Positions 1,431 to 60,620 are shown, counted from the stretch's first letter. The stretch is 64,000 nt of DNA from Thermoanaerobaculia bacterium (GCA_038245905.1 JBBRRY010000001.1:160001-224000), one strand, 5' to 3'. Translations and numbers: made by a program. The notes: generated by a model from the sequence alone, not told the origin.

Positions 1431-3172
1431 AGGCGTAGCTGGGTTTGTCCAGAGCCCCCTCGAGTTGAAGTCGTCATAAAAGGCGTTGAAAGTGAAGTAG
1501 TTCGTCCAGTTATGCAGGAGGCCGAGCGAGTATGTGACGGTGTCGCGACCGGCATCCCGGCCCGAGCCTGCCGTTGGATCGTTCTCTGTGTCGAAGAGAT
1601 CCCAGAAAAAAGCCTGCACGTTTCCTTCTAAACGATAGCCTGGCGCGCAGGTGGTGTAGCACTCAACGTCAGGAAACGACAGGCAAGGGACCAAGTAGTC
1701 ACGGCCATCTGGCTCCCACCATGAGGCGTGCCAGTCGGCGAAGCCCTCGCTGAAGGAGGTCACGTCGCCGGAGCTTATGCAGTACGAGTGAGTGCCACCG
1801 CCAGCGAGCGATCCTCCCTGAAGTTCGTATTGAAAGAAGTGCCCGAATTCGTGGGCCATGAGCCACTTGAACACCCAGCGCCCCGAATCGTTGAATTCGA
1901 CGAGCCCTGGGCTCGTGGGAATGAACGCCGCGTTTGCGTCCTGGAACGTGGGGTCGTATCCAGCCTTGAAAGGCGTGAACGAGGCACCGAAGCCGCTGTC
2001 TGACCACCTTTTCTGGAGGGACTTGATCTCCTCGTTCCAATTGAAGAGGAAGGCGTTCGCGGTGCTGTTCGTATCGAACAGGGGGTACATCATGTATGTC
2101 CCGCCATTCCAGCCACCGAAATAATAGGCGGGCCCGACCTCCTGGGTCACGAGCGTGATTGAGGCGGTACCAGCAGCGCGGCTGCCGGCGTCCGGGGCCG
2201 TTGTCACGAAGGTCACGGCGGGGTTGGGGCCGCCGGGGCCTGTATAGCTGGTCACGTTGATCGTGAAGGTGGCGTTCGGATCTCCCGTCGTCGTCCCGGT
2301 GAAACGCGTAGTCCGGTACTGGTAATAGTCGCAGTAGTTCTCCCAGAGAACCTGGGTGTCCACGCCGACGGCGTACCCCTCCCCAATGCGCTCGATCCCC
2401 TGCTGATAAAGGTTGTAGTAGCTCACAAAGCCCGACACCGGGAAGCTGTAGTTCAGATCGGAAATGTGAAACTTGCCGCAAGGTTCGGGCGGGCTCAGCG
2501 GGCCCACGGATTCCATGCTGGCGAGCCGATCCCACGCCAACTGCGCGGGGCTGTCCGGGACGAACGTGCCAGCGGACGGCTGTTCAGAAGCTGCGATGTC
2601 GCCAGCTGAGGTGGGTACGGGCCTCTTCTTGGCCGCGAGCGTTGCATCCAGCGCTCGCCGCGCGGCCTTCTCTGCTGCGTCAGCGGCGGACCGGCCGGCA
2701 CGGCCTTCGACGATGCCTCGAACTCTTTCGCGGTGACCTGCTTCAACACATTTCCTGGTGTTCGACCGAATTCGAAGACCTCCGCACCAAGCTCCTTTCC
2801 GGCCGGGGAGACCACCTTTACGATAAGCGTCCCAGCCTCGCGGCCACCAACCATCTTCAACGAAATGGGCATGCGAACCACTTGTTCGACGGGAAGGGTA
2901 ACGGACGCCTCCACGGGCAATACCTCGATGTCCCCCAAGGCGTGCGGTACGACACGGGCGGTGGGAATCGCGAAGTGCCGTGCCTCGATCGTCAGAATGA
3001 AGATGCCGTCCGGTCCAGCGGGCGCCGTTTCGAACGAGCCACCGATCGAGATATTCGGCGATACGGTTGCCGACGTGGGCTGACTCCAGGCGATTGCCGT
3101 GGCTGTCGCCAGCAGCGCCAGCCATGAGAAGGACCGCTTTGCACCAAGACGTTTCTTTGCGCTTCTGTCCAT
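1392..3172 (-). pseudogene. secreted zinc metallopeptidase (gluzincin-like), split by a frameshift near 2690-2705
   Basis: ORF from 3172 has AAGGAG RBS and signal peptide; the other frame continues with AHEFGHFF and downstream SFSEGFADW. Confidence 0.75.
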
Positions 3173-3180
3173 CTAAGAAC

Positions 3181-3217
3181 TCCTTGGGGGCTCAGAAGGG
3201 TTCCGCTCCCCCAAGGA
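3181..3217. promoter_or_regulatory. perfect 10-bp inverted repeat covering the peptidase RBS
   Basis: TCCTTGGGGG (3181-3190) / CCCCCAAGGA (3208-3217); minus-strand AAGGAG at 3180-3185. Confidence 0.6.
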
Positions 3218-3244
3218 ACAGGTATCCGCGACGGACACGGAAAG

Positions 3245-4278: not shown

Positions 4279-4288
4279 AGACTAGACG

Positions 4289-5515
4289 ATGCCAATGAAC
4301 GCGCTCTTCCGGGGGGATGGCTGGGGATTGCAGGACGGGGGAGGACCGGGGAGAGAACCGCGGAGAGAACCGGGGATTTTCTTTGAGGGTGAAGAGGAGA
4401 ATTTCCGGGCGGAGAGGCCGGAGCAGGTGCCCAGCGTCCTCTCTGCGCTCGACGAGATCGCCGCAAGCGGGGATCCAGGCCTTCTCGCCGCTGGATTCAT
4501 CTCGTACGAAGCGGGAGTCTGGCTCGAAGGCTCGACCGCGCTCGTCAGAGAACATGCATTTCTTCCTTTCGCAGAATTCTCCATCTTCAAATCCCACCAT
4601 TCCACCGTCCGTCGCCCCGCACCGCCGCCCCATGCCGGTTTCCCGCTCTTCACAATCAGAGAATCCGCGAGCGCGGAGCGCTCGCTCTCTCCGGACAATT
4701 GGACCCGCGGCGTCGCCGCGATTCGCGACGGGATCGCCCGGGGCGACGTCTATCAAGTGAACCTCTCGAGCCGCTCCCGCTTTCCGGGAGGTGTAGATCC
4801 CTCCTCCCTCGCGCGTGCTCTCTATGACGACAACCCCGTGCCGTTCGCCGTGACGCTCGCGGGCGACGACTGGTCCGTGGTGTCGAACTCGCCGGAGCTC
4901 TTTCTCGACGTCGACCTCGCGGCGCGACGCGTCGTCACGAAGCCGATCAAGGGCACGATCGCGCGCGCACCGGACGAAGAAGGGGACGCACGGCGCCGCG
5001 CGGCGCTCCTCGCCTCGGCGAAGGACGCCGCGGAGAACGTGATGATCGTGGACCTCCTGAGGAATGACCTGGGGAAGGTCGCGGAACCGGGACGCGTCGA
5101 AACGACAGCGCTCCGGGTGCTCCGATCGTTCCGCCATCTGCACCATCTGGAGTCCGCCGTGCAAGCCCGACTCCGCCCCGGCACGGGGCTCGCCGACGTC
5201 CTCCGCGCGACGCTGCCCGGCGGCTCGATCACGGGCGCGCCGAAGCGCGCGGCTCTCCGCTTCATCCATGACCTCGAGCCCGTCGCGCGCGGCGCCTATT
5301 GCGGCGCGGCAGGGTTCGTGCGCGGCGACGGCCGGGCCGTCTTCAACGTGGCGATCCGCACGGCGCTCGTCGGGCGGGATACAGTCGACTACCACGCCGG
5401 GAGCGGAATCGTGTGGGACTCCCGGCCGGGCGCCGAGTGGCGTGAAATGGAATCGAAGTCGCGGGAATTCGGCGCGGCGATGGTCGCGCTCGTCGCACGG
5501 GCCGGAGGAAGGTGA
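4289..5515 (+). CDS. pabB: aminodeoxychorismate synthase component I / chorismate-binding enzyme
   Basis: GDVYQVNL, SPELF, PIKGT, AENVMIVDLLRNDLG, PGGSITGAPK, NVAIRT; next to an aminotransferase class IV gene. Confidence 0.85.
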   Translation: MPMNALFRGDGWGLQDGGGPGREPRREPGIFFEGEEENFRAERPEQVPSVLSALDEIAASGDPGLLAAGFISYEAGVWLEGSTALVREHAFLPFAEFSIFKSHHSTVRRPAPPPHAGFPLFTIRESASAERSLSPDNWTRGVAAIRDGIARGDVYQVNLSSRSRFPGGVDPSSLARALYDDNPVPFAVTLAGDDWSVVSNSPELFLDVDLAARRVVTKPIKGTIARAPDEEGDARRRAALLASAKDAAENVMIVDLLRNDLGKVAEPGRVETTALRVLRSFRHLHHLESAVQARLRPGTGLADVLRATLPGGSITGAPKRAALRFIHDLEPVARGAYCGAAGFVRGDGRAVFNVAIRTALVGRDTVDYHAGSGIVWDSRPGAEWREMESKSREFGAAMVALVARAGGR

Positions 5516-6313: not shown

Positions 6314-6335
6314 CAGGGACTACACTTTCCCTGTT

Positions 6336-9129: not shown

Positions 9130-10965
9130 GTGGGCGCGCCTCCGGACCTCTCCCTCTATCCCGACCAACCGGGCATCTACCTCTACAAGGATGCGAAGGG
9201 GAAGATCCTCTATGTCGGGAAGGCGCGGTCGATCCGCAAGAGGCTGGCCTCTTATTTCGGCACGGCGCCGAAGCACCCGAAAACGGAAGCGCTTCTCGCC
9301 GACTTCGTGTCGATCGACACCGTCATCGCGAAGAACGAGAGCGAAGCCCTCGCACTCGAGAACGCCTACATCAAGAAGCACAAGCCGCGGTACAACATCA
9401 TGCTCCGCGACGACAAGACGTATCCGTACATCAAGGTCACGACGGGGGAGGACTGGCCGCGCGCCTTCGTGACCCGGCGCGTCCTCAAGGACGGCCACAG
9501 CTACTTCGGGCCCTTCATTCCCGCACGAACGTGTCGCGGCGCGATGAAGATGGTCCAGCGGATGTTTCAGGTCCGAACCTGCCGCATCGAGATCGACGGC
9601 AGACTCCCGCGCCCCTGCCTCTATTACGACATGCACGCCTGCCTCGGTCCGTGTGTCGCGGGCCTCACGACCAGGGCCGCATACGACGATGCCGTCAGGG
9701 ACGTCGTCCTCTTTCTCTACGGGCGAAACGAGGAGCTGCGCCCGCGCCTCGAGGAGAAGATGCGCGCGGCGGCGGGCGCCGAGAACTTCGAGATGGCGGC
9801 CGCCTATCGCGACTGCCTGCGCACGGTCGAGGAGCTCGCCGAGAAGCAGCGCGTGCAATACGTGTCGGGTGAGGATCTGGACGTGTTCGGTGATTTCTCC
9901 GACGGAGGCAGCGTCGCCGCCTCGGTCCTCTTCGTGCGCGGAGGCGTCGTCCTCGACTCGCGCGAGTACTTCTGGGAGAAGCTCGGCGACGTGCCACCGG
10001 AGGAATTCTGGGTCTCGCTTCTCTCGCAGTTCTACGACGGAACCACGTTCCTGCCGCGCGACGTGCTTCTGCCCGTCGACCTGCCCGACGAGGCGCTCGA
10101 ACCGATCGAGACATGGCTCACGGAGCGGAAAGGATCGCGCGTCACGATCAAGACGCCCCGCCGCGGGGCGGCATTCGAGCGTGTGCAGATCGCCCGCGAC
10201 AACGCGCGCCAGAACCATCTCCGGCGGTTTCGAAGGGCGCTGGAGCAGGGCGAGAAGGCGACGCTCGCGCTCGCCAAGGCGCTCGACCTCGACCGCCGCC
10301 CGTCCCGGATCGAGTGCTTCGACATTTCCCATTTGCAAGGAAACGAGACGTACGCGTCCTGCGTCGTCTTCGTCGACGGAGAGCCCGCGAAGGACGAGTA
10401 CCGCCTCTTCAAGATCGAGAGCCCGGGCATCGACGACTTCGCGTCGATCGCGGAGGCCGTATCGCGCCGCTACACGCGTGCGCGGGACGAAGGCAGGCCT
10501 CTGCCCGACCTGCTCCTGATCGACGGGGGCAAGGGGCAGCTCTCCGCGGCGCTCGCGGCGCTCGACCGCATCGGCATCGGGATGGCGGCAGCCGGGCTCG
10601 CGAAACGCGAAGAGCAGGTCTTCGTGCCCGGCCGTTCGGCCCCGATCGTGCTCGCAAGGACGAACGCGGGCCTCAAGCTCCTCCAGAGAGCGCGCGACGA
10701 AGCGCACCGATTCGGTCTGAAAACGCATCGCCGAGCGCGCGCCAAGCGCGCCCTCGAGAGCCCGCTTCTCGCGATTCCAGGACTCGGGTCCACGCGGGTC
10801 CGGATACTTCTCTCCGCCTTCGGGGGAGCCGAAGCCGTCTTCGCCGCGACGGACGAGGCCCTCGCGGCGGTCGCCGGGAAGTCCGTTGCCGCGACGATCG
10901 CGCGGTTTCGGCAGGGCTCTACCGGCGAAAGATCCACTGTCGCTGCTACACTTTCGAAGGAATGA
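9130..10965 (+). CDS. uvrC: excinuclease ABC subunit C
   Basis: GIY..YVGKA, KPRYNIMLRDDKTYPY, IECFDISH, PDLLLIDGGKGQL, RDEAHRF, HhH. Confidence 0.97.
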   Translation: MGAPPDLSLYPDQPGIYLYKDAKGKILYVGKARSIRKRLASYFGTAPKHPKTEALLADFVSIDTVIAKNESEALALENAYIKKHKPRYNIMLRDDKTYPYIKVTTGEDWPRAFVTRRVLKDGHSYFGPFIPARTCRGAMKMVQRMFQVRTCRIEIDGRLPRPCLYYDMHACLGPCVAGLTTRAAYDDAVRDVVLFLYGRNEELRPRLEEKMRAAAGAENFEMAAAYRDCLRTVEELAEKQRVQYVSGEDLDVFGDFSDGGSVAASVLFVRGGVVLDSREYFWEKLGDVPPEEFWVSLLSQFYDGTTFLPRDVLLPVDLPDEALEPIETWLTERKGSRVTIKTPRRGAAFERVQIARDNARQNHLRRFRRALEQGEKATLALAKALDLDRRPSRIECFDISHLQGNETYASCVVFVDGEPAKDEYRLFKIESPGIDDFASIAEAVSRRYTRARDEGRPLPDLLLIDGGKGQLSAALAALDRIGIGMAAAGLAKREEQVFVPGRSAPIVLARTNAGLKLLQRARDEAHRFGLKTHRRARAKRALESPLLAIPGLGSTRVRILLSAFGGAEAVFAATDEALAAVAGKSVAATIARFRQGSTGERSTVAATLSKE

Positions 10966-12476
10966 CTCGCTCCAACAGCGATAGCCGCGTCAAAAAGATG
11001 TTGACCGGCGGATCCATCGAACGGACCCCGTTTGCCGAGGTCGTGCGAAGTCTCTACCGGGAACGCGCGACGGCGAAACTGCTCGTGTCGAACAAGGGCG
11101 AGGAGCGGACGTGTTTCTTCGACAGGGGCCAGATCCTGTTCGCGAGCTCGAACCGTGAGGCCCAGCTCGTGGGTGAGCTGCTGCGGACGTTCGGTCTCGC
11201 GGAAGAGAACCTCCTCCTGTCGGCATTCGAACAGGCGCTCAACGAGCCCGGGCAGGGCCTGGCCCGAGCTCTGACCGAATCGGGCGCGGTGCCCGGATAT
11301 GTCGCGGAGGCCGCGGTTCGGGCTCTCGCCGAGCGCCTGTTTTTCGACACGTTCAAATGGACCACCGGAATCTTCACCGTCACGCCCCTGGACGAAACCC
11401 CGTTCGTCCCGGCGAAGATGGATCGGCCGACAGGCGGCCTCGTCCTCGAAGCGCTCCGCCGTCTCCCGGCCCCCGCCTCACAACTCAATTCACCCCTCGA
11501 TCCGGGCGCCCGGCCGGTCTTCGCGCCGGACATCCTGTTCCGGTATCAGGCCATTCTCGTCTCGGCCGCGGAGGCGGAAGTGCTCGGGAGAGTCGACGGC
11601 GCGACGACCGTGGAGCAGATTCATCGCGACCAGCGGATCGTCGCCCGGCTCGCGGGAACGGGGCTCCTTCAGCTCGTAGCGCAGGGGCGCCCCATCGAGA
11701 AGAGCGGCGTCGCCGAAGGCCTCCTTTTCCTGAACGTCGAGATCTCTGGCGTGCAGCCTCCAGCGCGCGTGGCCGAACAGAACGAGCTCCAGCGCGAGCT
11801 CGTCTGGAATTCCTATCGCCGGCTGGACTGGGCCTCGCACTACGACCTCCTCGGCGTTGAGCCGCAAGCTCCGGTCGAGGTCGTCGCCAAGGCTCTTCAC
11901 GAGCGCGCGCGCATATTCCATCCGGACCACCACATGAAATCGCACCTGACGGACGCGCGCGAAGCGCTCGAGGCGCTCTTCGCCAGCATCCGCAGCGCCG
12001 AGCGCACGTTCCGGACACCAGAGTCGCGCCAGGCGTACGACCGGACCCTCGAGGTGAGCGCCGATACCATCGCGTTGCCCGGAACGGAACCGACTCTCGA
12101 GGTCCAGAAGGAAATCGCCCGCAAGAACTTCGTGCGCGCGAAGATCCTGTACGAGGAAGAGGATTTCTACCCGGCGTACGAAATGGTCCGGCAGGCCGTC
12201 GAGTTCGACCCAGGCCAGAAGGACTACTGGGTGCTCCTCGCGAGAATTCAGCGGAAGAACCCGAAATGGGTCCGGCACGCGACCGAGACGATGCGGCGAG
12301 CCGTCAAGTTCATCCCCGAGAACGTCGAGTTGTGGTGGGAGCTCTCCGAGGCCTGCCTTGGAGAGCGGAACGAACCGGAGCGCGTGAAAGCCTTGAAGGA
12401 AGTCATGCGGCTCGACCCCGGAAACCGGAGGGCGCAGACCGCGCTTGCGGCCATTACGGCGAAGGCGTCCCGGTGA
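10962..12476 (+). CDS. DUF4388-like / J-domain / TPR protein
   Basis: N-terminal DUF4388-like domain; HYDLLGV..RIFHPD J-domain; C-terminal TPR helices; ATGA overlap with uvrC. Confidence 0.8.
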   Translation: MTRSNSDSRVKKMLTGGSIERTPFAEVVRSLYRERATAKLLVSNKGEERTCFFDRGQILFASSNREAQLVGELLRTFGLAEENLLLSAFEQALNEPGQGLARALTESGAVPGYVAEAAVRALAERLFFDTFKWTTGIFTVTPLDETPFVPAKMDRPTGGLVLEALRRLPAPASQLNSPLDPGARPVFAPDILFRYQAILVSAAEAEVLGRVDGATTVEQIHRDQRIVARLAGTGLLQLVAQGRPIEKSGVAEGLLFLNVEISGVQPPARVAEQNELQRELVWNSYRRLDWASHYDLLGVEPQAPVEVVAKALHERARIFHPDHHMKSHLTDAREALEALFASIRSAERTFRTPESRQAYDRTLEVSADTIALPGTEPTLEVQKEIARKNFVRAKILYEEEDFYPAYEMVRQAVEFDPGQKDYWVLLARIQRKNPKWVRHATETMRRAVKFIPENVELWWELSEACLGERNEPERVKALKEVMRLDPGNRRAQTALAAITAKASR

Positions 12477-20293: not shown

Positions 20294-20306
20294 GGGGCCC
20301 GTCCCG

Positions 20307-22412
20307 CTGCTCCCTTCTCTTCCATCGCTTGCCAGCCTGCCCGGCATCGGCCCCGCGCGGGCGAAGGAGCTGGCCGAAGCCGGGGTCGAGACGGCGCTCG
20401 ATCTCCTCCTTCACCTCCCGTTCCGCTACGAGGACCGCACCCGGATCGGGCGCATCGCCGATCTCGTTCCCGAGGGCCCCGCCACGACGGTAAAGGGCGA
20501 GGTTCTCTCCGCGAAACTCATCCGCACCCGTCGCCGCGGCTTCACGATCTTCGAGGCGATCCTCGACGACGGCTCGGGTCCTCTCAGAATCATCTTCTTC
20601 AACCAGCCCTACCTTCAGCGGTGGATGCTGCCGAAGAAGGTCTTCTGGGTTTACGGGGCTCCGACGCAGGCGGCGCGCTATCGGCGCGGGCTCGTCATGG
20701 AGAACCCGCAGATAGAAGAGTTCCTAGAAGGTGAAGAGGGGCGGGACCCCCTCAGCGTCGGCCGGGTCGTTCCCATTTACCGCAAGCTGCCGGGCCTGAC
20801 GCCCCGTGCACGCCGCACGGTCGTCTTCCACCTTATAAGAGACTTTGCAGACCACCTCCCCGAGCGTATGCCTCCGTCGAAGCGGGAGGGTCCGAAGCTG
20901 CCCGCTCTTTCCGAATCCCTCCAAGAAGCCCACTTCCCGGGCAGCAGCGGCGGGCCCGCCGACGCCTCGCCCTGGACCGAACGCACCTCGCCCTACCTCC
21001 ACCGCCTCGTGTACGAGGAGTTCCTCGAGTTCCAGGTAGGCCTTCAGCGGCGGCGCCGGGCGCGTGCGGCCGACCCGGCGCCCGTGCTCGCCGCGGACGA
21101 CGCCATTCGCGCGCGGCTCAAGGCGCTCCTCCCGTTCGCGCTCACCGGGGCGCAGAAGCGGGTGATCCGGGAGATCGGCGAGGACTTCCGGCGCGGCAGG
21201 CCGATGCGGCGGCTTCTCCAGGGCGACGTCGGGAGCGGCAAGACGATCGTCGCGGTGCTCTCGGCCGTGCTCGCCGCCGCGTGCGGGTACCAGACCGCGC
21301 TCATGGCACCAACCGAAATCCTCGCCGAGCAGCACGCGGCGACGATCTTCCGCCTGCTCGCGCAGTCGGGGCTCGTGCCCGCGCTCCTCACGGGTCGCGT
21401 CAAGGGAAAGGCCCGCGTCGCGCTTCTGGACCAGCTCGCGGGCGGGCGCGTCAACCTCCTCATCGGGACACACGCGCTCCTGGAAGATCCCGTGGCGTTT
21501 CTGCGGCTCGGACTCGTCGTCATCGACGAGCAGCATCGGTTCGGGGTGGCCCAGCGCACGGCGCTCGCGGCGAAAGCCGTCACGTCAGGCCGAAAGCCGC
21601 ACCTCCTCGTGATGTCCGCGACGCCGATCCCGCGCTCCCTGGCGCTCACGCTGTACGGCGATCTCGACGTGTCGACGCTCGACGAGAAGCCGCCCGGGCG
21701 GACTCCGGTGGCGACGCGCATTCTCCCGGAGTCCGAGCGTGGCGTCGTGTTCCGTGAGATCGAGGCCGAGATCCGGGCCGGGGGCCAGGCCTACGTCGTC
21801 GTTCCCCTCATCGAGGAGTCGGACAAGATCGAGGCGCGCGCGGTCGAAAAGCACGTCGAGGAGATCCGCCGGGCGCTGCGAGGGAGACGCGTCGGGGTCG
21901 TGCATGGCCGCATCCCGCCCGACGAGCGCGAACGAACGATGGGGGAGTTCGCGGCCGGCCGGCTCGATGTCCTCGCGGCGACCACCGTGATCGAGGTCGG
22001 CGTCGACGTGCCGAACGCCTCCTACATGCTGATCGAGAACGCCGAACGCTTCGGTCTCGCCCAGCTCCACCAGCTGCGCGGCCGCGTCGGGCGGGGACGA
22101 CGCGCCTCGCGCTGCGTGCTGCTGTTCGGCCCGGGGATCTCGCCGGAGTCGCGCGAGCGGCTCGCCGTTCTCGAGAGGACGGACGACGGATTCGTCGTGG
22201 CCGAAGAGGACCTGAAGCGCCGCGGCCCAGGCGACGCGCTCGGGACCCGCCAGAGCGGTATCCCGCTTTTCCGGGTCGGCGACCTGATCCGGGACCTGAA
22301 GTGGATGAAACTGGCGCGCGACGAAGCGAGTCGAATGCTCGCGGACGGCACGGACGCGCCGTTCCGCAACGCGCTCTTTCTCCGGGCGGCCGACCTGCCG
22401 GCAGGCGACTGA
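20307..22412 (+). CDS. recG: ATP-dependent DNA helicase RecG (inferred CTG start at 20307)
   Basis: LPGIGPARA, LPFRYEDR upstream and in frame; QGDVGSGKT, DEQHRFG, SATPIPR, QLRGRVGRG. Confidence 0.95.
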   Translation: MLPSLPSLASLPGIGPARAKELAEAGVETALDLLLHLPFRYEDRTRIGRIADLVPEGPATTVKGEVLSAKLIRTRRRGFTIFEAILDDGSGPLRIIFFNQPYLQRWMLPKKVFWVYGAPTQAARYRRGLVMENPQIEEFLEGEEGRDPLSVGRVVPIYRKLPGLTPRARRTVVFHLIRDFADHLPERMPPSKREGPKLPALSESLQEAHFPGSSGGPADASPWTERTSPYLHRLVYEEFLEFQVGLQRRRRARAADPAPVLAADDAIRARLKALLPFALTGAQKRVIREIGEDFRRGRPMRRLLQGDVGSGKTIVAVLSAVLAAACGYQTALMAPTEILAEQHAATIFRLLAQSGLVPALLTGRVKGKARVALLDQLAGGRVNLLIGTHALLEDPVAFLRLGLVVIDEQHRFGVAQRTALAAKAVTSGRKPHLLVMSATPIPRSLALTLYGDLDVSTLDEKPPGRTPVATRILPESERGVVFREIEAEIRAGGQAYVVVPLIEESDKIEARAVEKHVEEIRRALRGRRVGVVHGRIPPDERERTMGEFAAGRLDVLAATTVIEVGVDVPNASYMLIENAERFGLAQLHQLRGRVGRGRRASRCVLLFGPGISPESRERLAVLERTDDGFVVAEEDLKRRGPGDALGTRQSGIPLFRVGDLIRDLKWMKLARDEASRMLADGTDAPFRNALFLRAADLPAGD

Positions 22413-22452
22413 TGCCCCTCTCGTTCCGGGTTAACATCTCGGGCCGCGCGGT

Positions 22453-23115: not shown

Positions 23116-24110
23116 TGTCTTCCTCTTCGAGGCAAATCGTTCTTTCCGGCCTGCGTCCCACGGGTCGCGTCCACCTCGGCAACTACTGGGGCGCCGTCAA
23201 GAACTGGGTCGACCTCCAGGAGACCTACGACTGCCGCTACTTCGTCGCCGATCTGCACGCGCTCACGACCGACTACGCCGACGCCTCCCAGATTCGGCAG
23301 GCCTCGCTGGATGCCGCGACGGACTGGCTGTCGGTCGGCCTCGATCCGGAGAAATCCGTCATCTTCGTGCAGTCGCGCGTCCCGCAGACGGCGGAGCTGG
23401 CGCTCGTCTTCGGGATGATCACGCCCCTCGGCTGGCTCGAGCGCGTGCCGACTTACAAGGAGCAGATCGAGCAGCTCCGGGAGCGCGACCTCGGGACTTT
23501 CGGGTTTCTCGGATATCCAGTTCTCATGACCGCCGATATCGCGCTCTATCGCGCGCACTTCGTGCCTGTCGGCAAGGACCAGGAGAGCCATCTCGAGATC
23601 TGCCGCGAGATCGTCCGGCGCTTCAACGGCTTCTACGGCGACGTCTTCCCCGAGCCGCGGGCGCTCTTCACCCAGACCCCGAAGGTGCCGGGCCTCGACG
23701 GCCGGAAGATGTCGAAGAGCTACGGAAACACGATCGCCCTCTCCGACCCGGCGGCCGACGTCGAGAAGAAGGTCATGGGCATGGTCACGGACCCGGGCCG
23801 CGCGCGCCGGTCCGACCCGGGGAATCCCGACGTCTGCAATCTCTATCCGTTCCACATCCTCTACTCGCCGCCCGAAGAGCAGAAGCAGGTGGATCTCGAG
23901 TGCCGTACGGCGGCGCGCGGCTGCGTGGACTGCAAGAAGCACCTCATCCGCAACATGAATGCCGCGTTGGAGCCGATCCGCCAGAAGCGCGCCGAGATCC
24001 TGGCGAAACCGGGCTATGTGAGGGACGTGCTCGAAACGGGAAACGAAAGAGCGAGAAATATTGCTTCGGAAACGATGGAGACAGTCTCCGACGCAATGGG
24101 GTTGCTGTGA
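23115..24110 (+). CDS. trpS: tryptophan--tRNA ligase
   Basis: SGLRPTGRVHLGNY, YPVLMTADI, VPVGKDQ, KMSKS. Confidence 0.97.
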   Translation: MSSSSRQIVLSGLRPTGRVHLGNYWGAVKNWVDLQETYDCRYFVADLHALTTDYADASQIRQASLDAATDWLSVGLDPEKSVIFVQSRVPQTAELALVFGMITPLGWLERVPTYKEQIEQLRERDLGTFGFLGYPVLMTADIALYRAHFVPVGKDQESHLEICREIVRRFNGFYGDVFPEPRALFTQTPKVPGLDGRKMSKSYGNTIALSDPAADVEKKVMGMVTDPGRARRSDPGNPDVCNLYPFHILYSPPEEQKQVDLECRTAARGCVDCKKHLIRNMNAALEPIRQKRAEILAKPGYVRDVLETGNERARNIASETMETVSDAMGLL

Positions 24111-24155
24111 GAGCCGTCGTTCTTCACCTTCTAAGAAATCTTCGGTCGTTCTTCC

Positions 24156-24968: not shown

Positions 24969-25585
24969 CCACGCATGTGGCGCTCCTCGAGGCCCTCCTC
25001 TTCGCGTCCGGGAAGTCCGCGACCGTCGAGCGTCTCGCCGAGGCCGCGGAAATCACGAAGGAAGAGGTCGAAGCCGCCCTCGACGCGCTCGAGAGCGCCT
25101 GCGAGGCCGAAGGGCGGGGCGTACGCGTGGACCGCGTCGCCGGTGGCGCGCGCCTCGTGTCGCGCAACGAGTACGACCTGCCCGTCCGAAGCCTCCTCGG
25201 GCTCGAGGGCAAGAACAAGCTCTCGATCCCGAGCCTCGAGGTGCTGTCGATCGTGGCGTACCGGCAGCCGGTCACGGCGCCCGAGATCGCGGAGCTTCGC
25301 GGCGTGAGCTCGGCGTCCTCGCTGCGCACCCTCCTCGACAAGAAGCTCATCACGACGGCCGGCCGCAAGGAAGTCGTCGGGACCCCGTTCCTGTACAAGA
25401 CGACGAAAGAGTTCCTCGTGCACTTCGGCCTGGCCGACCTGAAGGACCTCCCGCGCCCGGAGGACCTCGACGCGCTTTATGGGGTCGAGACGAATACGGC
25501 GCAGACCGAGCTGTTTCCGGAGCAGAATTCTGCTGAAGAAGAGAAGGAAACAGGAATAGATAGAGAGAAAGAGGAAGATTCTTAG
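24965..25585 (+). CDS. scpB: segregation and condensation protein B
   Basis: LEALLF, LEVLSIVAYRQPVT, LYKTTKEFLVHFGL. Confidence 0.95.
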   Translation: MTTHVALLEALLFASGKSATVERLAEAAEITKEEVEAALDALESACEAEGRGVRVDRVAGGARLVSRNEYDLPVRSLLGLEGKNKLSIPSLEVLSIVAYRQPVTAPEIAELRGVSSASSLRTLLDKKLITTAGRKEVVGTPFLYKTTKEFLVHFGLADLKDLPRPEDLDALYGVETNTAQTELFPEQNSAEEEKETGIDREKEEDS

Positions 25586-25640
25586 AATGGTTAATTCCCT
25601 TCCCTCTTCTAAGCAAATCTTTCTTTCTCTTTTCCTATTT
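25536..25640. repeat. inverted pair of the dispersed TTCTWAGAA motif with purine-rich left and pyrimidine-rich right flanks
   Basis: GAAGATTCTTAGAA (25574) ... TTCTAAGCAAATCTTTC (25608). Confidence 0.8.
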
Positions 25641-36125: not shown

Positions 36126-36863
36126 GTGACCCCCGCGCGGCCCCCCGGCTCCGACGCGCTCCGGGAAACCCTCGCCTACTATCTCGACCTCGGCGTGGCG
36201 GAGCTGTACCTCGACGCAGGGTCCGAAGAGCACCGGGAGGAAGAGATTCCTTTGGTAGTGAATAGCGGAGGGGAGGAAGCCGCAGCGCTCCTGGGGCCCC
36301 TCGCTCTTGAAGTCTCCACCTGCGTCACGTGCCGGCTGTGCAAAACCCGCAAGCAGACCGTGTTCGCCGATGGTTCGCCCGCCGCCCGGATCATGTTCAT
36401 CGGCGAGGCGCCGGGGGCCGACGAGGACGCGCAAGGCGTGCCGTTCGTGGGGCGCGCGGGCCAGCTTCTCACGCGGATGATCGAGGACGGCATGGGGCTG
36501 CCTCGCTCGTCCGTCTACATCGCGAACGTCCTGAAGTGCCGTCCGCCCGAGAACCGGAACCCGGAGCCCGACGAGATCGCCGCATGCCGCGGCTACCTCG
36601 AGCGACAGATCGACCTCGTGAAGCCAGAGGTGCTCGTCGCCCTCGGCAAGTTCGCCGCGCACTTCCTGCTGGAAACCGAGGAGGGCATCACGCGCCTTCG
36701 CGGTAAGTGGGGGAGCTATCGCGGCATTCCGGTGATGCCAACTCTCCATCCGTCCTACCTCCTCCGCCAACCGGCCCAGAAGAAGGAGTCGTGGGAGGAT
36801 CTGCTTGCGGTGCTCGCAAGGCTCGGGATCGACGCACCTGCACGCAGGGAGAAGCAGCCGTGA
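36126..36863 (+). CDS. uracil-DNA glycosylase family 4
   Basis: CVTCRLC, GEAPG, PFVGRAG, KCRPP, HPSY. Confidence 0.95.
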
Positions 36864-39918: not shown

Positions 39919-40877
39919 GGTCGGCGGAGCTCGAGGACGAGATAAGGATTCAAGGGAGTGCCGGCGAGCCACGTGAAGCCCGGCACGGACGTGAGCGCGT
40001 AGAAGGCCGCCATCGGCGCGCGAAACACCCGTCCGTACCAGTGCGCGCCCACCTGGTTGAAACGCAGACGGTGATGCGGCGAGCGGGCGGAGACGTGGAG
40101 AAAGGGATCCAGGCGCGCCGCGAGCCGGCGGATCTCTCTCACGTTTGGAAGAAATCCTTCGAAGGGGGAATGCCAACGGGCGCCGCCTGCCGTCGGTCCG
40201 TGCCAGAAGTCGACCGGAAAGGCCCCGTTCGGAAAGTCGAGGTAGAGCGCGCCCCCCGGCCTGATCACTCGCGCGAGGCCCGCGAGGAACGCCTCGCGCC
40301 GCGCGTCACGATCCGGGAGCGGCGAGACTTCATAGACCCCGGGCCCGCCACGCTCGTCGACACCGACGTGTTCGAGGACGCCGGACGAGATCACGGCGTC
40401 GAAAAACGCGTCCGGAAAGGGGAGCCTGAGCCCGTCCGCCACAACGAGTCGCTCACGGTGAGCGCGTGCCCGCCACTGCCACTTGCGAAACGACGACAGG
40501 TCATGCCCCCAAGCGTCGAACCCCGCCTCCGAGAGCGTGTCGACCGCCTCGCCGTTCCCGCACCCAGAGTCGAGGACGCGTCGCGCGCCCGTCGAGCGCA
40601 GGAGTGGCAGGTAGTAGTCCTCGATGCGGCGGCCCGCGGTCTCGTTCTCGTATCCGCGGAGCGCCTCTTCGGAAAGGCAGGTGGGGTCCGGGTGGTCGTC
40701 GAAGTACTGCCGTTCGGAAAAATCGGCGATCCCGTCGTCGACGGGGTAGACCTTTCCGCACGCACGGCAGGAGAGAGACGAGGAGCCGGAGAAAGGAGAA
40801 GATTCTTCGAATGTTCCTAAGCAACGGGGGCAGACGAGCGCTTCGGGCGAACGAGCCTCTTCCTCTTCTCTTTCCAC
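39915..40877 (-). CDS. class I SAM-dependent methyltransferase with Trm112-like zinc ribbon
   Basis: LVCPRC..CRACGKVYPVDDGI; VLDSGCGNG; LPFPDAFFD; VIRPGG. Confidence 0.88.
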   Translation of the reverse strand: MEREEEEARSPEALVCPRCLGTFEESSPFSGSSSLSCRACGKVYPVDDGIADFSERQYFDDHPDPTCLSEEALRGYENETAGRRIEDYYLPLLRSTGARRVLDSGCGNGEAVDTLSEAGFDAWGHDLSSFRKWQWRARAHRERLVVADGLRLPFPDAFFDAVISSGVLEHVGVDERGGPGVYEVSPLPDRDARREAFLAGLARVIRPGGALYLDFPNGAFPVDFWHGPTAGGARWHSPFEGFLPNVREIRRLAARLDPFLHVSARSPHHRLRFNQVGAHWYGRVFRAPMAAFYALTSVPGFTWLAGTPLNPYLVLELRRP

Positions 40878-40958
40878 TCGAAGAAATCTCTCTTCGAAGC
40901 TTGCCTCGGACGCGCCTCGCTGTCGAGAGACTCGCGGGAGGTCTGCTACAGTCTCTTC

Positions 40959-48676: not shown

Positions 48677-48681
48677 ACGCG

Positions 48682-50570: not shown

Positions 50571-50572
50571 AT

Positions 50573-51285: not shown

Positions 51286-51305
51286 GCCGCGGTTAAGATA
51301 TCCGG

Positions 51306-54225: not shown

Positions 54226-55668
54226 GTGAGAGAGCCCGCGCTTCCCCGCAAGGCCCGCAGCGTCTTCGTCGAGACGTGGGGCTGTCAGATGAATGTGCTC
54301 GATGGGCGGCGATTCATAGGGCTTCTGGAGCGAGAGGGGATCGTCGAGGCCGGGACGCCGGAGGAAGCCGACGTTGTTCTGCTCAACACATGCTCGGTGC
54401 GCGACAAGGCTGAGCAGAAGGTCTACGACCGGATCGGACGACTCGCGAAACTGAAGCGTGAACGCGCGGGGATGGTCATCGGGGTTTGTGGCTGCGTGGC
54501 GCAGCAAGAAGGGGAGGACCTCCTGGAGCGCCTCCCACAAGTGGATTTCATCCTCGGGACCGGGCGCATCGAGGCTCTCCCGTCGGTGCTGCGGCGGGTC
54601 GACGAAGAAGGCGACCGACCCTGCGAGACGGGATTCGACCTGGATGAAGTCGTCTATACGCCCGGCGCCGTCGCTCACGCGGTTCCGCACCGTGCCGGGA
54701 TCACGGTGATCGAGGGCTGCAACAAGAACTGCACGTTCTGCGTCGTTCCGAGAACGCGCGGGCGCGAGCGCAATCGCCGCCTGCGTGACGTCGTGGACGA
54801 GGCGCGTTCCCTGGTAGAGGCCGGTGCCCTCGAAATCGAGCTCCTGGGGCAGACCGTGAACGCCTTCCGCGACCCAGAAACGGGCGAGGATCTCGCGGAC
54901 CTCCTGCGCGCCGTCGGCGCCCTGGCAGGAATCCGGCGCCTACGCTTCGTCACGTCCCATCCCGCTAGTTTCTCGGACCGGCTCATCGCCGCGATGAGCG
55001 AGACGCCGGCAGTCGTTCCCGCGCTCCACCTGCCCGTGCAGTCAGGCTCCGACACGGTCCTTCGGCGCATGAAACGTCAGTACACCCGGGCGGAGTACCT
55101 CGACCTCGTCGCGCGGCTCCGCGCCGCAGTTCCAGGCCTCGCACTCTCGACCGACGTCATCGTGGGGTTCCCGGGTGAGACGGAGACTGATTTCCTGGAG
55201 ACGCTTTCGCTCTTTGAAGAGGTCCGGTTTGCCGGCGTCTTCTCCTTCACGTATTCGCCGCGCCCACAGACGGCGGCGCTCAGGTGGGAGCACGACGTCA
55301 CACCGCAGGAAGCATCCGCTCGCCTGGTGCGGCTCGAGGCGCTGCAGCAGGGAGTCCAGAGGGGCCTGAACCGCGCACTTGAGGGGAGCACCCTGGAGGT
55401 GCTCGTCGAAGGCCTCGACCGCAAGCGGCGCAACTGCTCGGGCCGATCGCGCTGTGGACGCGTCGTGAACATCGCTGGCGAGCTGAACCTCGCGCCCGGC
55501 ACGCTCGTGGACGTCCGGATCGAGCGAGGATTTCCGAATTCTCTGCTCGGACGAAGACAGGAAAAGACCCGGGAAAGCGCCCAGGAAAAGATCGAAGAGG
55601 AGATTTCTTCGAAAGTGATTGGGGGCGGAGTCACGGGTGCGACGCAAGTGCTCGACTTGCTCTTGTGA
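54226..55668 (+). CDS. miaB: tRNA-2-methylthio-N6-dimethylallyladenosine synthase
   Basis: TWGCQMN, NTCSVR, CNKNCTFC, LPVQSG, TRAM domain. Confidence 0.96.
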   Translation: MREPALPRKARSVFVETWGCQMNVLDGRRFIGLLEREGIVEAGTPEEADVVLLNTCSVRDKAEQKVYDRIGRLAKLKRERAGMVIGVCGCVAQQEGEDLLERLPQVDFILGTGRIEALPSVLRRVDEEGDRPCETGFDLDEVVYTPGAVAHAVPHRAGITVIEGCNKNCTFCVVPRTRGRERNRRLRDVVDEARSLVEAGALEIELLGQTVNAFRDPETGEDLADLLRAVGALAGIRRLRFVTSHPASFSDRLIAAMSETPAVVPALHLPVQSGSDTVLRRMKRQYTRAEYLDLVARLRAAVPGLALSTDVIVGFPGETETDFLETLSLFEEVRFAGVFSFTYSPRPQTAALRWEHDVTPQEASARLVRLEALQQGVQRGLNRALEGSTLEVLVEGLDRKRRNCSGRSRCGRVVNIAGELNLAPGTLVDVRIERGFPNSLLGRRQEKTRESAQEKIEEEISSKVIGGGVTGATQVLDLLL

Positions 55669-55788
55669 ATTCTTTCCTAACTCATTCTAAGAAAATAAGT
55701 TAGATGCAGAAACGTTGCTGCTCGTTTGCGGGCTGACCTTGCTTTATCCCTTATCTCTCCCTAGATTGAGTCCGGGAGAACCCCCATT

Positions 55789-56274
55789 TTGAGCGTCCGG
55801 ATGGAAGTGAAGGCACTGATTGTGGATCCAATAGCGAACATGCCTGTCGTGATCCTGCGCGACGCGGAGGAGAAGAACTTCCTGCCGATCTGGGTCGGCG
55901 TCTTCGAAGCAAATGCGATCGCCCTCCAGATGGAAGGCATTACGACCCCCAGGCCGATGACGCACGATCTTCTGAAGAACCTCATCACACAGATAGAGGG
56001 CGACGTCCTCAGGGTCGTCATCAACAACCTCAAGGAAAATACGTTCTACGCCCAGATCCATCTTCGTGTCGCGAACCGAGACGTGCTCGTGGACAGCCGT
56101 CCCTCGGACGCGATCGCACTCGCGCTCCGGCTCGCCGCTCCCGTGTTCGTAGAAGAATCGGTTCTCGAAAAAAGCCGTAGCGGGCAAGACACCTCGGAGT
56201 CCCAGAATTCCGAGCGCCTCCGGAAGTGGTTCGAGGAAGCCGATCCGGACACGCTCGGCAAGTACCGGATGTAG
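55789..56274 (+). CDS. bifunctional nuclease family protein (DUF151)
   Basis: LPIWVG..EANAI, RPMTHDL, DSRPSDAIALA. Confidence 0.94.
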   Translation: MSVRMEVKALIVDPIANMPVVILRDAEEKNFLPIWVGVFEANAIALQMEGITTPRPMTHDLLKNLITQIEGDVLRVVINNLKENTFYAQIHLRVANRDVLVDSRPSDAIALALRLAAPVFVEESVLEKSRSGQDTSESQNSERLRKWFEEADPDTLGKYRM

Positions 56275-58009: not shown

Positions 58010-58170
58010 GAAGACAGAACAGAGGCACCAGGCCAGCTCGCCGCCCGCCGCGCCCTCTCAGTCAAATCGCCGTGCGCTTTCATTAACGCCTTCAAATTCC
58101 CTTTCTAAGAAAACCCCTAATGCCCTTTTCCTTCCGCGCGCCTAATGATTTCATGTCTTGTAATTCTGAT

Positions 58171-58198
58171 ATTTAACATAATAAATCTTATCGGACCT
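58171..58198 (-). other. dif: dif site (XerC/XerD chromosome dimer resolution site)
   Basis: Minus strand AGGTCCGATAA-GATTTA-TTATGTTAAAT: exact E. coli XerD arm, 6-bp spacer, XerC-like arm; intergenic. Confidence 0.92.
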
Positions 58199-58242
58199 TG
58201 TGTTCTGGCCTCGGAATGAGAGCGCTTCGGCTACGATCTGCC

Positions 58243-60555
58243 GTGCTCTCGCGCTTGAATCGCTACGTCTTCCTGGAAGTAGCCGGTCCCACGGTCATAG
58301 GCTTCCTCGCGTACACCGGCTTCATGGCGGTACGAGGGCTGGTGCAGTTTTCCGAGCTCCTCGTCCAGAGCGAGCGCCCGTTCGCCGAAGCAGGTCTCGT
58401 GGTAGCGCTCTCGCTCCCGCACATCGTGGTTCTCACGCTGCCCGTCGCGTTCCTTCTCGGACTCCTCATCGGCATCGGCCGCCTCTCGGCTGACTCCGAG
58501 CTGACTGCCCTTCGAGCCTCGGGCGTCGATCTTCTCGTGCTCTATCGCCCGATCGGGGTGCTCGCGACCGTCACTGCCGGCGTGACCCTCGTCCTGATGC
58601 TCACCGTCGTCCCCCGCACGAATCACCTTCTGTATGCCATGAAGCTTCGCCTCTCGAGCTTTGCATTCGCCCAGAGAATCCAGCCGGGCGTGTTCAGCCC
58701 GGAGATCGCCGGCTTGCGCGTCTACGCCGAAGGGGCGTCTCCGGACCGGCGCGAGCTCACCGGGCTCATTATCTCGGACCGTTCCAATCCCGAAGGGGCT
58801 GAGTTGACGCTCGCGCGGCGCGGCTGGCTCGAGCTCGAGGAGGAGCAGGGCCGCTTGTGGCTCCGGGTAGAGGACGCGGAGCGGCACCACCTCTCGGAGG
58901 ACGGGCGGCGATACGACGTCACCTCGTTCTCCCGGCAGCGCATGGTCCTGCAAGACAACGGACCGACCCTTGGCGTCTCCGAAAAGCAGATCCGGGAGCA
59001 GACCCTCCGCGAGCTGCTGGACCGAGCCTCCGCCCGGGCGCGCCGCCCCGAGGACCGGCGACTCGCCCTCACCGAGGTCCACAAGAAGTTCGCGCTCCCG
59101 GCAGCCTGCCTCGTCTTCGGTCTGATCGGGCTCCCCCTCGGAATCGTCAACCGGCGAGGCGGCCGCGCGGCCGGGTTTGCGGTGTCGATCGGGATCGTGC
59201 TCTTCTACTACGCTCTCCTCGCCACGGGCGAGGCCCGCGCCATCGAAGGCCGCATGTCGCCCGCTCTCGCCATGTGGTTGCCAAACCTCCTGCTTCTCGG
59301 CTTCGGCGCATACGCCCTGGCTCGCGTGCGGCGCGACAAGAGCATCGTCGCCCTCCCCTTCAGGACGTCGCTCGTCGCCACCCGTGCCGAGATCTTGGGC
59401 CCCGGCTCGATCGCCGCCTCCGCTCCGATCGAACGCCCAGTCGCGACGCCCGGCCGCCGCGCTTCCCTGCCGGGCCTCCTTCTCGTTGACCGTTACATCG
59501 CAAGGCGATTTCTCGGCGTCTTCGTTCTCGTCGTGGCCTCGATCGCGACTCTGTACATGCTGATCGACTACCTCGAGATTTCAGACGACATCGCGCGCCA
59601 TCGGCCACCGACGTCCTTGATCCTCCGTTACGTCCAGGCTTCGCTCTCCCCCATCGTTCTGGCCATCGTGCCGTTCGCCTTCCTCGTCGCGGCCCTCGTC
59701 ACGGTTGCGAGCCTCGTGCGCTCGGCCGAGACGACCGCTCTCCTGGCGCACGGCGTTTCTCTCTACCGGACGACGGCCCCGATTCTCGTCCTCGCCGTGA
59801 TCGCAGGAGGCCTCCTCTTCCTCTTCGCCGAGCGCATCGTCCCGACGGCCGCCTCCGAAGCCGATCGACTCAGGTTCCTGTTGAAGGGACAGACGCCACC
59901 TGCAAGCAACGCCGGCGGTGTCTGGTTCCGCGGCGACGCGGGGCGTTTCTATTCCGCGGACGCCTACGACCCCGCGTCGCGCATCGCCGTCGGCGTGACG
60001 GTCTTTCAGATCGATCCGTCGACCTGGAGGCTTGTCTCCCGTCACGACGCGGCACGGGCACGCCTCGCCCCTGGGAAAGGCCTCCTCGCGGAGGACGGGT
60101 GGATCCGTACGTTCACCGAGGGCCATACTCTCGCCATCCGGCGCGACGGCCCGTTCTTCATCGATTCTCCCGAATCCGCGGCCGGATTCGTCTCTGGCCG
60201 GGCGGACCCACGCCAGATGACCTACCGCGAGCTGGCGCGCTTCATCGAGGTGCGGCGCCGGGCGGGTGCCGACACGGCGATGCTCGCGACCGGGCTGCAC
60301 CAGAAGACCGCTGGGGCGGCTTCCGCACTTCTCCTGACACTCGTCGGGCTTCCCTTCGCGTTCGCGTACGGAAAGCGAGGCGCCGTCGCGGGCGTCGGCA
60401 TCGCGCTGTTCCTTGGCCTGACCTACCTGTTCCTGTCCGCGCTCCTCGTTTCGTTCGGCGAGCAGGGAGCCATTCCACCCCTCATCGCGGCATGGGCGCC
60501 GAACGTGTTCTTCGGGCTCGGGGCGGCGTGGGGGCTTTTGGGGGTCAGGACGTAA
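58243..60555 (+). CDS. fused LptF-LptG LPS export permease (start 58216 or 58243)
   Basis: Two YjgP/YjgQ halves: GRLSADSELTALRASG..MWLPN and DRYI..SAETTALLAHG..AWAPN. Confidence 0.9.
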   Translation: MLSRLNRYVFLEVAGPTVIGFLAYTGFMAVRGLVQFSELLVQSERPFAEAGLVVALSLPHIVVLTLPVAFLLGLLIGIGRLSADSELTALRASGVDLLVLYRPIGVLATVTAGVTLVLMLTVVPRTNHLLYAMKLRLSSFAFAQRIQPGVFSPEIAGLRVYAEGASPDRRELTGLIISDRSNPEGAELTLARRGWLELEEEQGRLWLRVEDAERHHLSEDGRRYDVTSFSRQRMVLQDNGPTLGVSEKQIREQTLRELLDRASARARRPEDRRLALTEVHKKFALPAACLVFGLIGLPLGIVNRRGGRAAGFAVSIGIVLFYYALLATGEARAIEGRMSPALAMWLPNLLLLGFGAYALARVRRDKSIVALPFRTSLVATRAEILGPGSIAASAPIERPVATPGRRASLPGLLLVDRYIARRFLGVFVLVVASIATLYMLIDYLEISDDIARHRPPTSLILRYVQASLSPIVLAIVPFAFLVAALVTVASLVRSAETTALLAHGVSLYRTTAPILVLAVIAGGLLFLFAERIVPTAASEADRLRFLLKGQTPPASNAGGVWFRGDAGRFYSADAYDPASRIAVGVTVFQIDPSTWRLVSRHDAARARLAPGKGLLAEDGWIRTFTEGHTLAIRRDGPFFIDSPESAAGFVSGRADPRQMTYRELARFIEVRRRAGADTAMLATGLHQKTAGAASALLLTLVGLPFAFAYGKRGAVAGVGIALFLGLTYLFLSALLVSFGEQGAIPPLIAAWAPNVFFGLGAAWGLLGVRT

Positions 60556-60620
60556 AGAGGATTTTCTTAGAAGGTGCCCGTGCTCCCGACCACTCTTCCC
60601 TTCTAAGAAATCCTCCTCTT
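60555..60620. repeat. inverted pair of the dispersed TTCTWAGAA motif between convergent genes
   Basis: GGATTTTCTTAGAAGG (60559) ... CCTTCTAAGAAATCC (60599). Confidence 0.85.

Follow-up and report, generated by a model that had tools for sequence, protein, structure and literature searches.

Convergent pairs of a 26-nucleotide word in Thermoanaerobaculia genomes: candidate recognition sites for a synapsing factor

A dispersed motif in a run of housekeeping genes

A 64,000-nucleotide stretch of DNA from a Thermoanaerobaculia bacterium (GCA_038245905.1, JBBRRY010000001.1:160001-224000; called the window below, with positions counted from its first letter) carries a dispersed AT-rich motif whose copies, or arms, mostly stand in inverted pairs, a forward (F) arm followed by a reverse (R) arm. 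The window has a G+C content of about 67% and, according to Pfam, consists of a housekeeping run that lies nearly entirely on the plus strand. It includes pabB, uvrC, recG, scpA/scpB, an S1 protein gene, lpxB, an msbA-like gene, yicC, gmk, priA, accA and recJ, as well as the rpoN-hpf-hprK-rapZ-PTS (phosphotransferase system) genes, parA/parB, a fused lptF/lptG, ahcY and metK.

The complete 23-nucleotide form of the motif occurs once, at 24121-24143 on the minus strand (0.00 expected from 100 shuffles), and a copy with two mismatches lies at 20715-20737 on the plus strand. Its 9-nucleotide core, TTCTTAGAA, is present six times against 0.05 expected, and the variant TTCTTCGAA four times against 0.67. 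A first weight matrix trained on the six core copies found 17 sites of at least 16 bits, seeds counted in, which corresponds to 0.27 per kb. In 200 local shuffles that kept the composition in blocks of 30, 60 or 200 nucleotides, the mean number of such sites was 0.42, 0.32 and 0.20, respectively, with a highest single value of 4. Coding sequence taken separately (54,822 nucleotides) holds eight of these sites against 0.33, 0.16 and 0.10 in codon shuffles, none of which (0/100) reached eight. When the scores are read against the gene map of the window, the density per base is about 20-fold higher between genes than within them. The bit scores given below come from a second matrix, trained on the 17 sites.

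4373..4395, plus: F arm in the N-terminal region of pabB, in frame (27.2 bits; frame and translation; Chorismate_bind domain)
4560..4582, minus: R arm in pabB, partner of 4373F, centres 189 nucleotides apart (18.2 bits)
20715..20737, plus: F arm in the wedge domain of recG, reading EEFLEGEE (24.9 bits; the orthologous site of related locus L024 has the exact core)
20825..20847, minus: R arm in recG, partner of 20715F at 112 nucleotides (24.1 bits; kept in L024)
24056, plus: weak F copy opposite 24121R and its sole candidate partner (10.0 bits)
24121..24143, minus: perfect 23-mer, R, in the 45-nucleotide gap between a tRNA-synthetase gene and scpA (31.6 bits)
25573..25595, plus: F arm over the scpB stop codon (26.0 bits)
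25599..25621, minus: R arm, tight partner of 25573F (28 nucleotides), upstream of a pseudouridine synthase gene (24.5 bits)
34626..34648, plus: weak F arm in yicC, in the coding frame (14.4 bits)
34727..34749, minus: R arm in yicC (25.3 bits)
34817..34839, minus: second R arm in yicC (25.7 bits)
40137..40171, no single strand: overlapping R (40137) and F (40149) arms in a methyltransferase gene (16.8 and 24.1 bits)
40797..40819, plus: F arm in the zinc-ribbon part at the N-terminus of the minus-strand methyltransferase (21.7 bits; translation)
40869..40891, minus: R arm over the only in-frame start codon of the methyltransferase (GTG at 40877), 67 nucleotides upstream of accA (24.2 bits)
55599..55621, plus: F arm in the C-terminal coding part of a MiaB-like gene (25.8 bits)
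55677..55699, minus: R arm, intergenic, upstream of a BFN-domain gene (23.8 bits)
58095..58117, minus: R arm between parB and lptFG, with no scoring F partner (26.8 bits)
60558..60580, plus: F arm directly after the lptFG stop codon (24.7 bits)
60593..60615, minus: R arm closely paired with 60558F, between lptFG and ahcY, which converge (26.7 bits)
3163..3185, minus: lone weak R copy (17.1 bits)
10945..10967, minus: lone weak R copy at the uvrC stop and the start of the next gene (16.1 bits)
23118..23140, minus: lone weak R copy at the start of a tRNA-synthetase gene (16.8 bits)
36242..36264, plus: lone weak F copy in the UDG (uracil-DNA glycosylase) gene (15.9 bits)
56021..56043, minus: lone weak R copy in the BFN-domain gene (17.0 bits)

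The motif had been pointed out by eye in a sequence-only reading of this DNA, and its reality and enrichment are borne out by the matrix (17 sites against 0.2-0.4 in shuffles), as well as by the codon-preserving comparison that this reading had proposed (8 against 0.10-0.33). Nearly every position that it had listed scores. One does not, an F copy placed at 57997 that stays below 8 bits, and the matrix adds 10945R, 23118R, 40137R/40149F, 56021R and the weak 24056F. The rule that F precedes R holds for all eight window pairs and has a single exception, the divergent 40137R/40149F, whose arms overlap by 11 nucleotides and which is the only R-before-F case of the window. In pabB, recG and yicC, the copies are part of the in-frame coding sequence.

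Distribution, pairing rule and host genes

A scan of public contigs, one genome per species, with the 17-letter core GARGATTTCTTAGAAGG as query returned at least 116 loci. By record titles, 83 of them belong to Acidobacteriota/Thermoanaerobaculia metagenome-assembled genomes from 25 assemblies; the remaining 33 listed loci are single matches in AT-rich genomes of unrelated taxa, at about chance level. The source genome of the window is not among the matches listed. Among the latter, exact copies are scattered along megabase-scale contigs (on one 3.67-Mb contig, for example, at 0.76, 1.23, 1.82 and 2.13 Mb). The flanks of 50 long related loci, taken well away from the match that had brought each locus in and thus unselected, contain 36 sites of at least 16 bits in 160,004 nucleotides (0.225 per kb) against 0.3 in shuffles. 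Together with the 0.27 per kb of the window, this density suggests some 1000 sites in a 4-Mb genome. The sequence-only reading had proposed a nucleoid or terminus-organizing protein of the matS kind. A role specific to the terminus finds no support in copies spread over megabase-scale contigs, nor in a density that is equal in unselected flanks and in a window bearing parA-parB.

The sites also persist between species. Locus L024, which is 80% identical to window positions 18941-22709, has an exact core at the orthologous recG position and keeps the R partner too. Among the matches listed, 28 orthologous locus pairs come from differing assemblies, with 72-89% identity when the motif is masked. 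An exact copy is also found in the C-terminal extension of ribosomal protein L29 in at least five assemblies. Shared exact orthologous sites far outnumber the expectation for independent occurrence, a comparison for which the matches listed permit no proper estimate. The L29 extension itself, seen in five loci, is about 80-100 residues long, rich in Lys, Ala and Pro, and hosts a motif pair within the ribosomal-protein operon. In three further loci (three assemblies), a ComEA-like protein with two helix-hairpin-helix domains has an exact copy in the serine-rich linker between them.

An alignment of 236 sites delimits a conserved, asymmetric block of 26 nucleotides, from 10 before the core centre to 15 after it, which corresponds to the initial 23-mer extended inward by three G. 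Directly after the centre, A stands in 59% and C in 31% of the sites. Conservation is highest at a T-rich block and the core and falls toward the inner end, beyond which the sequence is GC-rich; the outer side bears a loose purine tract some 15 nucleotides in length, with no sharp boundary or defined terminus. The arm is purine-rich on one strand, and its only palindrome is the 9-nucleotide core. A site of the matS/Noc/SlmA type, that is a short palindrome bound by a dimer, was rejected since the conserved region is 26 nucleotides long, asymmetric and graded in its conservation; the matS-like identity suggested earlier finds no support on the same ground. No match to the canonical parS-type palindrome was found when up to three mismatches were allowed. 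Between positions -5 and +15, the T-rich block is followed by about 17 nucleotides of steadily falling conservation, a layout that we take to resemble, and only to resemble, the adjacent-motif-plus-seed gradient of RNA-guided DNA binders. The arm also contains a purine stretch that presumably looks like a Shine-Dalgarno sequence. The distance from arm to next start codon is not fixed (0 to about 125 nucleotides), so the arm is not a promoter or ribosome-binding element of fixed geometry.

The pairing is strict. Of the 81 exact copies whose flank is long enough, 68 face a reverse partner of at least 12 bits at 40-260 nucleotides on the inner side and two have one on the outer side, which bears out the convergent bias noticed by eye in the window. 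Neighbouring sites within 400 nucleotides are F-then-R in 91 cases, R-then-F in 7, FF in 6 and RR in 14; the FF and RR cases stem from sets that are nested or triple, for example that of yicC in the window and an F-F-R-R arrangement in an alanine racemase gene. The centre-to-centre spacing begins abruptly at 66 bp: of 86 pairs at 66-253 bp, 38 fall within 66-94 bp, and the only two tighter pairs (28 and 37 bp) are both in the window, at gene ends. The sequence between arms thus measures about 36 to 220 bp. Spacing shows no bias modulo 3 (33, 27 and 26 pairs) and no helical periodicity that convinces, the best period being 8.9 bp (uncorrected p 0.001, about 270 periods tried). As the sequence-only reading had stated, the spacers are unrelated: they have no common sequence, and only GC-rich words are modestly enriched in them. 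Across the 86 pairs of the window and the loci, words such as CGCCGCA occur in 21% of spacers and 2% of control segments.

The two arms of a pair do not follow each other. In 24 pairs in which neither arm had been picked by the exact pattern, partners have 14.17 of 26 positions in common, compared with 14.14 once partners are shuffled (p 0.50), and the full set of 88 pairs likewise shows no arm-to-arm covariation. Each arm therefore matches the consensus on its own, which fits the general idea of a protein-binding site put forward in the sequence-only reading. Six window regions were folded, five with pairs and one around the lone 24121R. One of them folds better than shuffles, 60545-60630 with the pair 60558/60593 (plus strand z -5.54, minus strand z -4.37; 0/200 shuffles as good). 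The other five range from z -1.45 to +1.1, the pair 25573F/25599R, inverted repeat I1, being a weak fold with z -1.45. The pair 60558/60593, which is located between convergent genes, may well serve as a two-way terminator and is an exception. Terminator-like sites are not enriched (14 against 12.9; 7 against 11.6), nor did a promoter scan reveal any enrichment.

The frames open through 56 exact copies in long loci were translated and scanned with Pfam. The coding calls rest on Pfam, the ad hoc gene finder being crude and having labelled several coding copies intergenic. On this basis, 38 of the 56 copies share an open frame with a domain, 20 of these lying within or between Pfam domains of one open frame, and 18 have no domain-bearing frame. 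The hosts include recG, the MutL linker, DnaE, RNase R (two species), alanine racemase, HIUase (5-hydroxyisourate hydrolase), NuoG, LigD, DUF1015 and a beta-lactamase-NamZ protein (three species), as well as an alpha-2-macroglobulin, a cyclase, Ser/Thr kinases and the ComEA-like protein (two species each); dnaX is also among them. In the forward direction, the arm leaves one frame open, EDFLEGEE, the other two hitting stop codons; in the reverse direction, it reads PSKKSS, or FEEI with the C variant.

Proteins accommodate the arms in several ways. Alignments to solved structures were used for HIUase and alanine racemase. HIUase takes up both arms as insertions into loops, of 13 and about 23 residues, on the two sides of some 35 native residues. 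Alanine racemase has four nested arms, one being a 10-residue insertion, one coming with a 4-residue insertion and two falling within conserved native segments. In the kinases, both arms recode ordinary kinase segments without insertion. In the LD-carboxypeptidase gene, an R arm is a 35-nucleotide insertion present in L024 only, relative to the window ortholog, which indicates that arms arise singly, by small insertion or in-situ change, and that the unit is not inserted whole. Indeed, in recG, the kinase, HIUase and alanine racemase, what lies between the arms is native sequence of the protein. None of 150 predicted genes around copies (loci L001-L062; 150 of 201 scanned) is a transposase, integrase or recombinase. 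The neighbouring genes include ribosomal-protein operons, rpoA, dnaB, ftsA, murC and NADH dehydrogenase genes.

Several other features of the window were recorded. Positions 46503-53084 hold a conserved cluster of rpoN, hpf, hprK, rapZ, a mannose-type EIIA gene, HPr and ptsI. A single gene (58198-60555; about 785 residues) encodes a fusion of LptF and LptG, and LptC-like and LptA-like parts share one 680-residue frame (43663-45705). A bacterial class A RNase P RNA gene lies at 16796-17193 on the plus strand (264 bits). Its 3' part overlaps a stop-to-stop frame (from 17132) that holds a short YacP-like NYN gene, called at 17225-17464. With gathering and E-value thresholds, this RNA was the only Rfam family found, plus one sub-threshold small RNA match elsewhere and none for the motif; a tRNA search found none. 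Region 547-3843 has a lower GC content (62%), and its frames 773-1378 (minus), 1395-3125 (minus) and 3245-4048 (plus) have no Pfam or NCBIfam match. Finally, many genes (for example at 6336, 10962, 40959, 51306, 54226 and 58243) have a -10 box of the TAnnnT type 6-12 nucleotides before the start codon and no Shine-Dalgarno sequence, which suggests, as far as sequence can tell, widespread leaderless or very short-leader mRNAs. Clear purine-rich ribosome-binding sites precede rpsA, hpf and ahcY.

A putative two-site reader and its alternatives

We favour the view that the pairs are recognition sites on duplex DNA for a putative lineage-specific factor that would engage two inverted sites at once, and we give this reading a probability of about 0.4. 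A conserved asymmetric word of 26 nucleotides whose copies match the consensus independently points to a sequence-specific reader rather than to a fold. Strict convergence, the twofold symmetry of the pair, and a spacing that is free above a floor point to a joint engagement of two sites on duplex DNA. Similar behaviour is known from transposase paired-end complexes and looping repressors. We infer from these features that the reader is a protein acting on DNA and that it brings two sites into synapsis. Each arm would be an independently maintained recognition site for a factor confined, judging by record titles, to the class Thermoanaerobaculia. A symmetric complex would engage two arms whose purine-rich strands point at each other, and bridging or looping would require at least about 36 bp of DNA between them. 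Pairs would be written wherever the sequence tolerates them, that is in intergenic DNA, protein linkers and surface loops. The role would be genome-wide, such as chromosome architecture or the marking of self DNA, and not the control of particular genes.

Put more broadly, and with slightly less assurance, the motif may be a class-wide punctuation of the genome, about 1000 copies per genome of an asymmetric 26-nucleotide word, set in convergent pairs around 36-220 bp of ordinary sequence, introduced even into essential proteins by loop insertion and rare-codon recoding, and read by a putative synapsing factor. Candidates for this factor would be a transposase-like protein that has been domesticated, a nucleoid protein of a new type or a binder guided by RNA; the last idea is drawn from the T-rich block followed by a 17-nucleotide stretch whose conservation decays with distance.

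Several observations weigh against such a reader. No binding factor came out of the analysis, and the spacing lacks the 10.5-bp helical phasing that a rigid looping protein would predict. Spacers are slightly richer in GC than controls (0.729 versus 0.693) and fold better (minimum free energy per nucleotide -0.418 versus -0.363, p 6e-5), so that structure at the RNA or DNA level may contribute. Unselected partner arms are hardly better kept between species (367/468, 78.4%) than spacers (76.9%) or outside sequence (75.7%), so no purifying selection is claimed on them. The information content of about 28 bits, inflated by ascertainment, is far above the need for some 1000 sites per genome. Arms forced into essential proteins with rare codons argue for a strong drive and not for a host benefit per site, which favours uptake or selfish rivals. 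The two-site reader fails to explain both these intrusions and the high information content.

The alternative that survives best, although we regard it as unlikely, is a drive similar to that of uptake signals. On this view, a machinery for DNA uptake or recombination would recognize the arm, and alleles that bear the motif would be preferentially acquired, so that copies would build up at any place that tolerates them. This would account for genome-wide over-representation in coding and non-coding DNA, for one word common to 25 assemblies among the matches listed, for copies kept at orthologous positions and for copies squeezed into permissive frames and loops by means of rare codons, and it explains the intrusion into essential genes better than a benefit per site does. 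Several hosts are genome-maintenance genes (recG, mutL, dnaE, dnaX, ligD), a bias reported for known uptake sequences but confounded here by gene length. Such sequences are known to work as single copies, at about one per kb. Here, 68 of 81 exact copies are paired above a 66-bp floor, which this drive does not predict, and the density (0.23-0.28 per kb) is below that of the known cases. For the pairs to be accommodated, the machinery would have to engage two inverted copies on folded duplex.

An element acting at the RNA level is improbable. A purine-rich arm and a later pyrimidine-rich one would pair in the transcript, and the long stem would act as a bidirectional terminator or as a site for a double-strand RNase, with ribosomes hiding it in the direction of translation. 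In favour are the strong fold of the tight pair 60558/60593 between convergent genes (z -5.5 and -4.4), the likeness of the general layout (purine tract, GC-rich core, pyrimidine tract) to a two-way terminator, and the somewhat better folding of spacers than of controls. Against this stand the lack of arm covariation, the four of five window pairs that fold no better than shuffles, and the fact that structure alone needs no conserved 26-nucleotide sequence. Moreover, pairs are found inside the L29 gene of a ribosomal-protein operon (at least five assemblies) and inside many long genes, terminator-like sites are not enriched, and no Rfam family matches. The ordinary intrinsic terminator, a GC-rich hairpin and U tract after a gene, was rejected for much the same reasons: it fits 60558/60593 only, it is not enriched, and pairs lie inside genes and operons.

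Slightly more doubtful still is the remnant of a mobile element, be it a MITE (miniature inverted-repeat transposable element) family sharing terminal repeats only, a doublet like a REPIN (paired repetitive extragenic palindromic sequences, REP) with a decayed interior, or a tiny self-inserting single-arm element. The anatomy of inverted terminal repeats, a minimum span like that of small MITEs, the 35-nucleotide arm insertion of L024 and the arms that are loop insertions of 10-23 residues all speak for it. Native homologous protein between the arms (recG, kinase, HIUase, alanine racemase) speaks against a unit inserted whole, as do unrelated spacers of about 36 to 220 bp. In the same vein, the outer edge fades out in a diffuse purine tract and lacks a defined terminus, no transposase, integrase or Y1 transposase occurs among the 150 neighbouring genes, sites persist across species whose flanks are 72-89% identical, and the 9-nucleotide palindrome of the arm cannot form a REP-like hairpin. 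The decayed MITE or REP ends that had been offered as the other possibility when the motif was first seen are therefore not retained: the interior is native, arms enter singly, and 0/150 neighbouring genes encode a transposase or recombinase. As to precise types, unrelated spacers and native interiors speak against an ordinary MITE, with whole-unit insertion and a common interior. REP/REPIN finds no support because the arm has no self-folding palindrome beyond the 9-nucleotide core, many copies are intragenic, and spacing runs from 66 to 253 bp with no covariation.

Invertons are very improbable. In this scheme, a site-specific recombinase would flip the segment between arms and, inside genes, recode or truncate the protein. 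Inverted repeats do flank short segments here, also within genes, and intragenic invertons have been described in other bacteria, as outlined in a preprint (bioRxiv 10.1101/2023.03.11.532203). Nevertheless, the spacer keeps the same orientation in 19 of 19 orthologous comparisons (65-92% identity), its length has no bias modulo 3, and flipping would be harmful in hosts such as dnaE, dnaX, recG, nuoG and L29. In addition, some 1000 sites per genome far exceed known inverton numbers, no recombinase is found among the 150 neighbouring genes, and the arm lacks the two-half-site layout of recombinase core sites. Lastly, a by-product of chance or codon usage, in which AT-rich patches of Phe, Glu and Lys codons merely look alike by eye, is already refuted: several coding copies do score weakly and the core does contain TTC and GAA codons, but codon-preserving shuffles never reach the observed count, copies occur on both strands and in differing reading frames, the pairing and orientation rule holds, exact 17-mers recur in at least 25 assemblies, and unselected related flanks have a comparable density.

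If the two-site reader exists as a dedicated factor, the pairs would represent a new means by which bacteria of one lineage mark or fold their chromosome, strong enough to reshape essential protein sequences across a class of largely uncultured Acidobacteriota. If drive is at work instead, they would be a third, structurally different case of uptake-signal-like accumulation outside the two known families. In either case, the motif provides a sharp signature by which Thermoanaerobaculia DNA may be told apart in metagenomes, a bait of known sequence with which to look for the factor, and a natural experiment on the amount of nucleotide-level constraint that coding sequences tolerate.

Comparison with known systems

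The element appears to be undescribed, since searches by motif string and keywords found nothing in print, supplements aside, and Rfam has no match. Among the closest known systems are the uptake signal sequences of Pasteurellaceae and the DNA uptake sequences of Neisseriaceae: these too are short over-represented words common to related species, present in both orientations in coding and non-coding DNA, fitted into permissive frames and loops, kept at orthologous positions and sometimes set as tight inverted pairs at gene ends. The motif differs from them by its near-obligatory convergent pairing, its 66-bp floor, the native sequence between arms and a density of about a quarter of theirs.

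With REP sequences, bacterial interspersed mosaic elements and REPINs, it has in common dispersal at about one pair per 8 kb, inverted arms, vertical inheritance and enrichment between genes. However, a REP unit is an extragenic, hairpin-forming palindrome with family-specific spacing and a REP-associated tyrosine transposase (RAYT) as partner, whereas here there is a 9-nucleotide palindrome only, many copies are intragenic, the spacing varies freely and no RAYT turned up. MITEs, among them Correia elements and Rickettsia palindromic elements, recall it by inverted terminal repeats of about 26 nucleotides and a minimum unit of about 90-120 bp, and palindromic repeats in frame inside protein genes have a precedent. 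They insert whole with a common interior, whereas here the interior is native and arms arise singly, by small insertion or in-situ change.

Invertons likewise have inverted repeats that bracket tens to hundreds of bp, also in genes, in the outline given by the preprint (bioRxiv 10.1101/2023.03.11.532203). They differ from the present system, in which one common 26-nucleotide arm recurs at about 1000 sites, class-wide and in essential-gene hosts, with no flipped spacer in 19 comparisons. The binding sites of Noc and SlmA, as well as matS and parS, are similar in being sequence-specific protein sites spread on a chromosome-wide rather than a gene-specific basis. These sites are short palindromes, present in tens per genome and regionally restricted; here, an asymmetric paired word of 26 nucleotides occurs at about 0.25 per kb over megabase-scale contigs.

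Taken together, the element fails at least one tested defining feature of uptake sequences, of REP/REPIN, of in-frame MITEs and of invertons. We class it as a variant of dispersed genomic repeat motifs, with a substantial chance that it belongs to a new kind of system.

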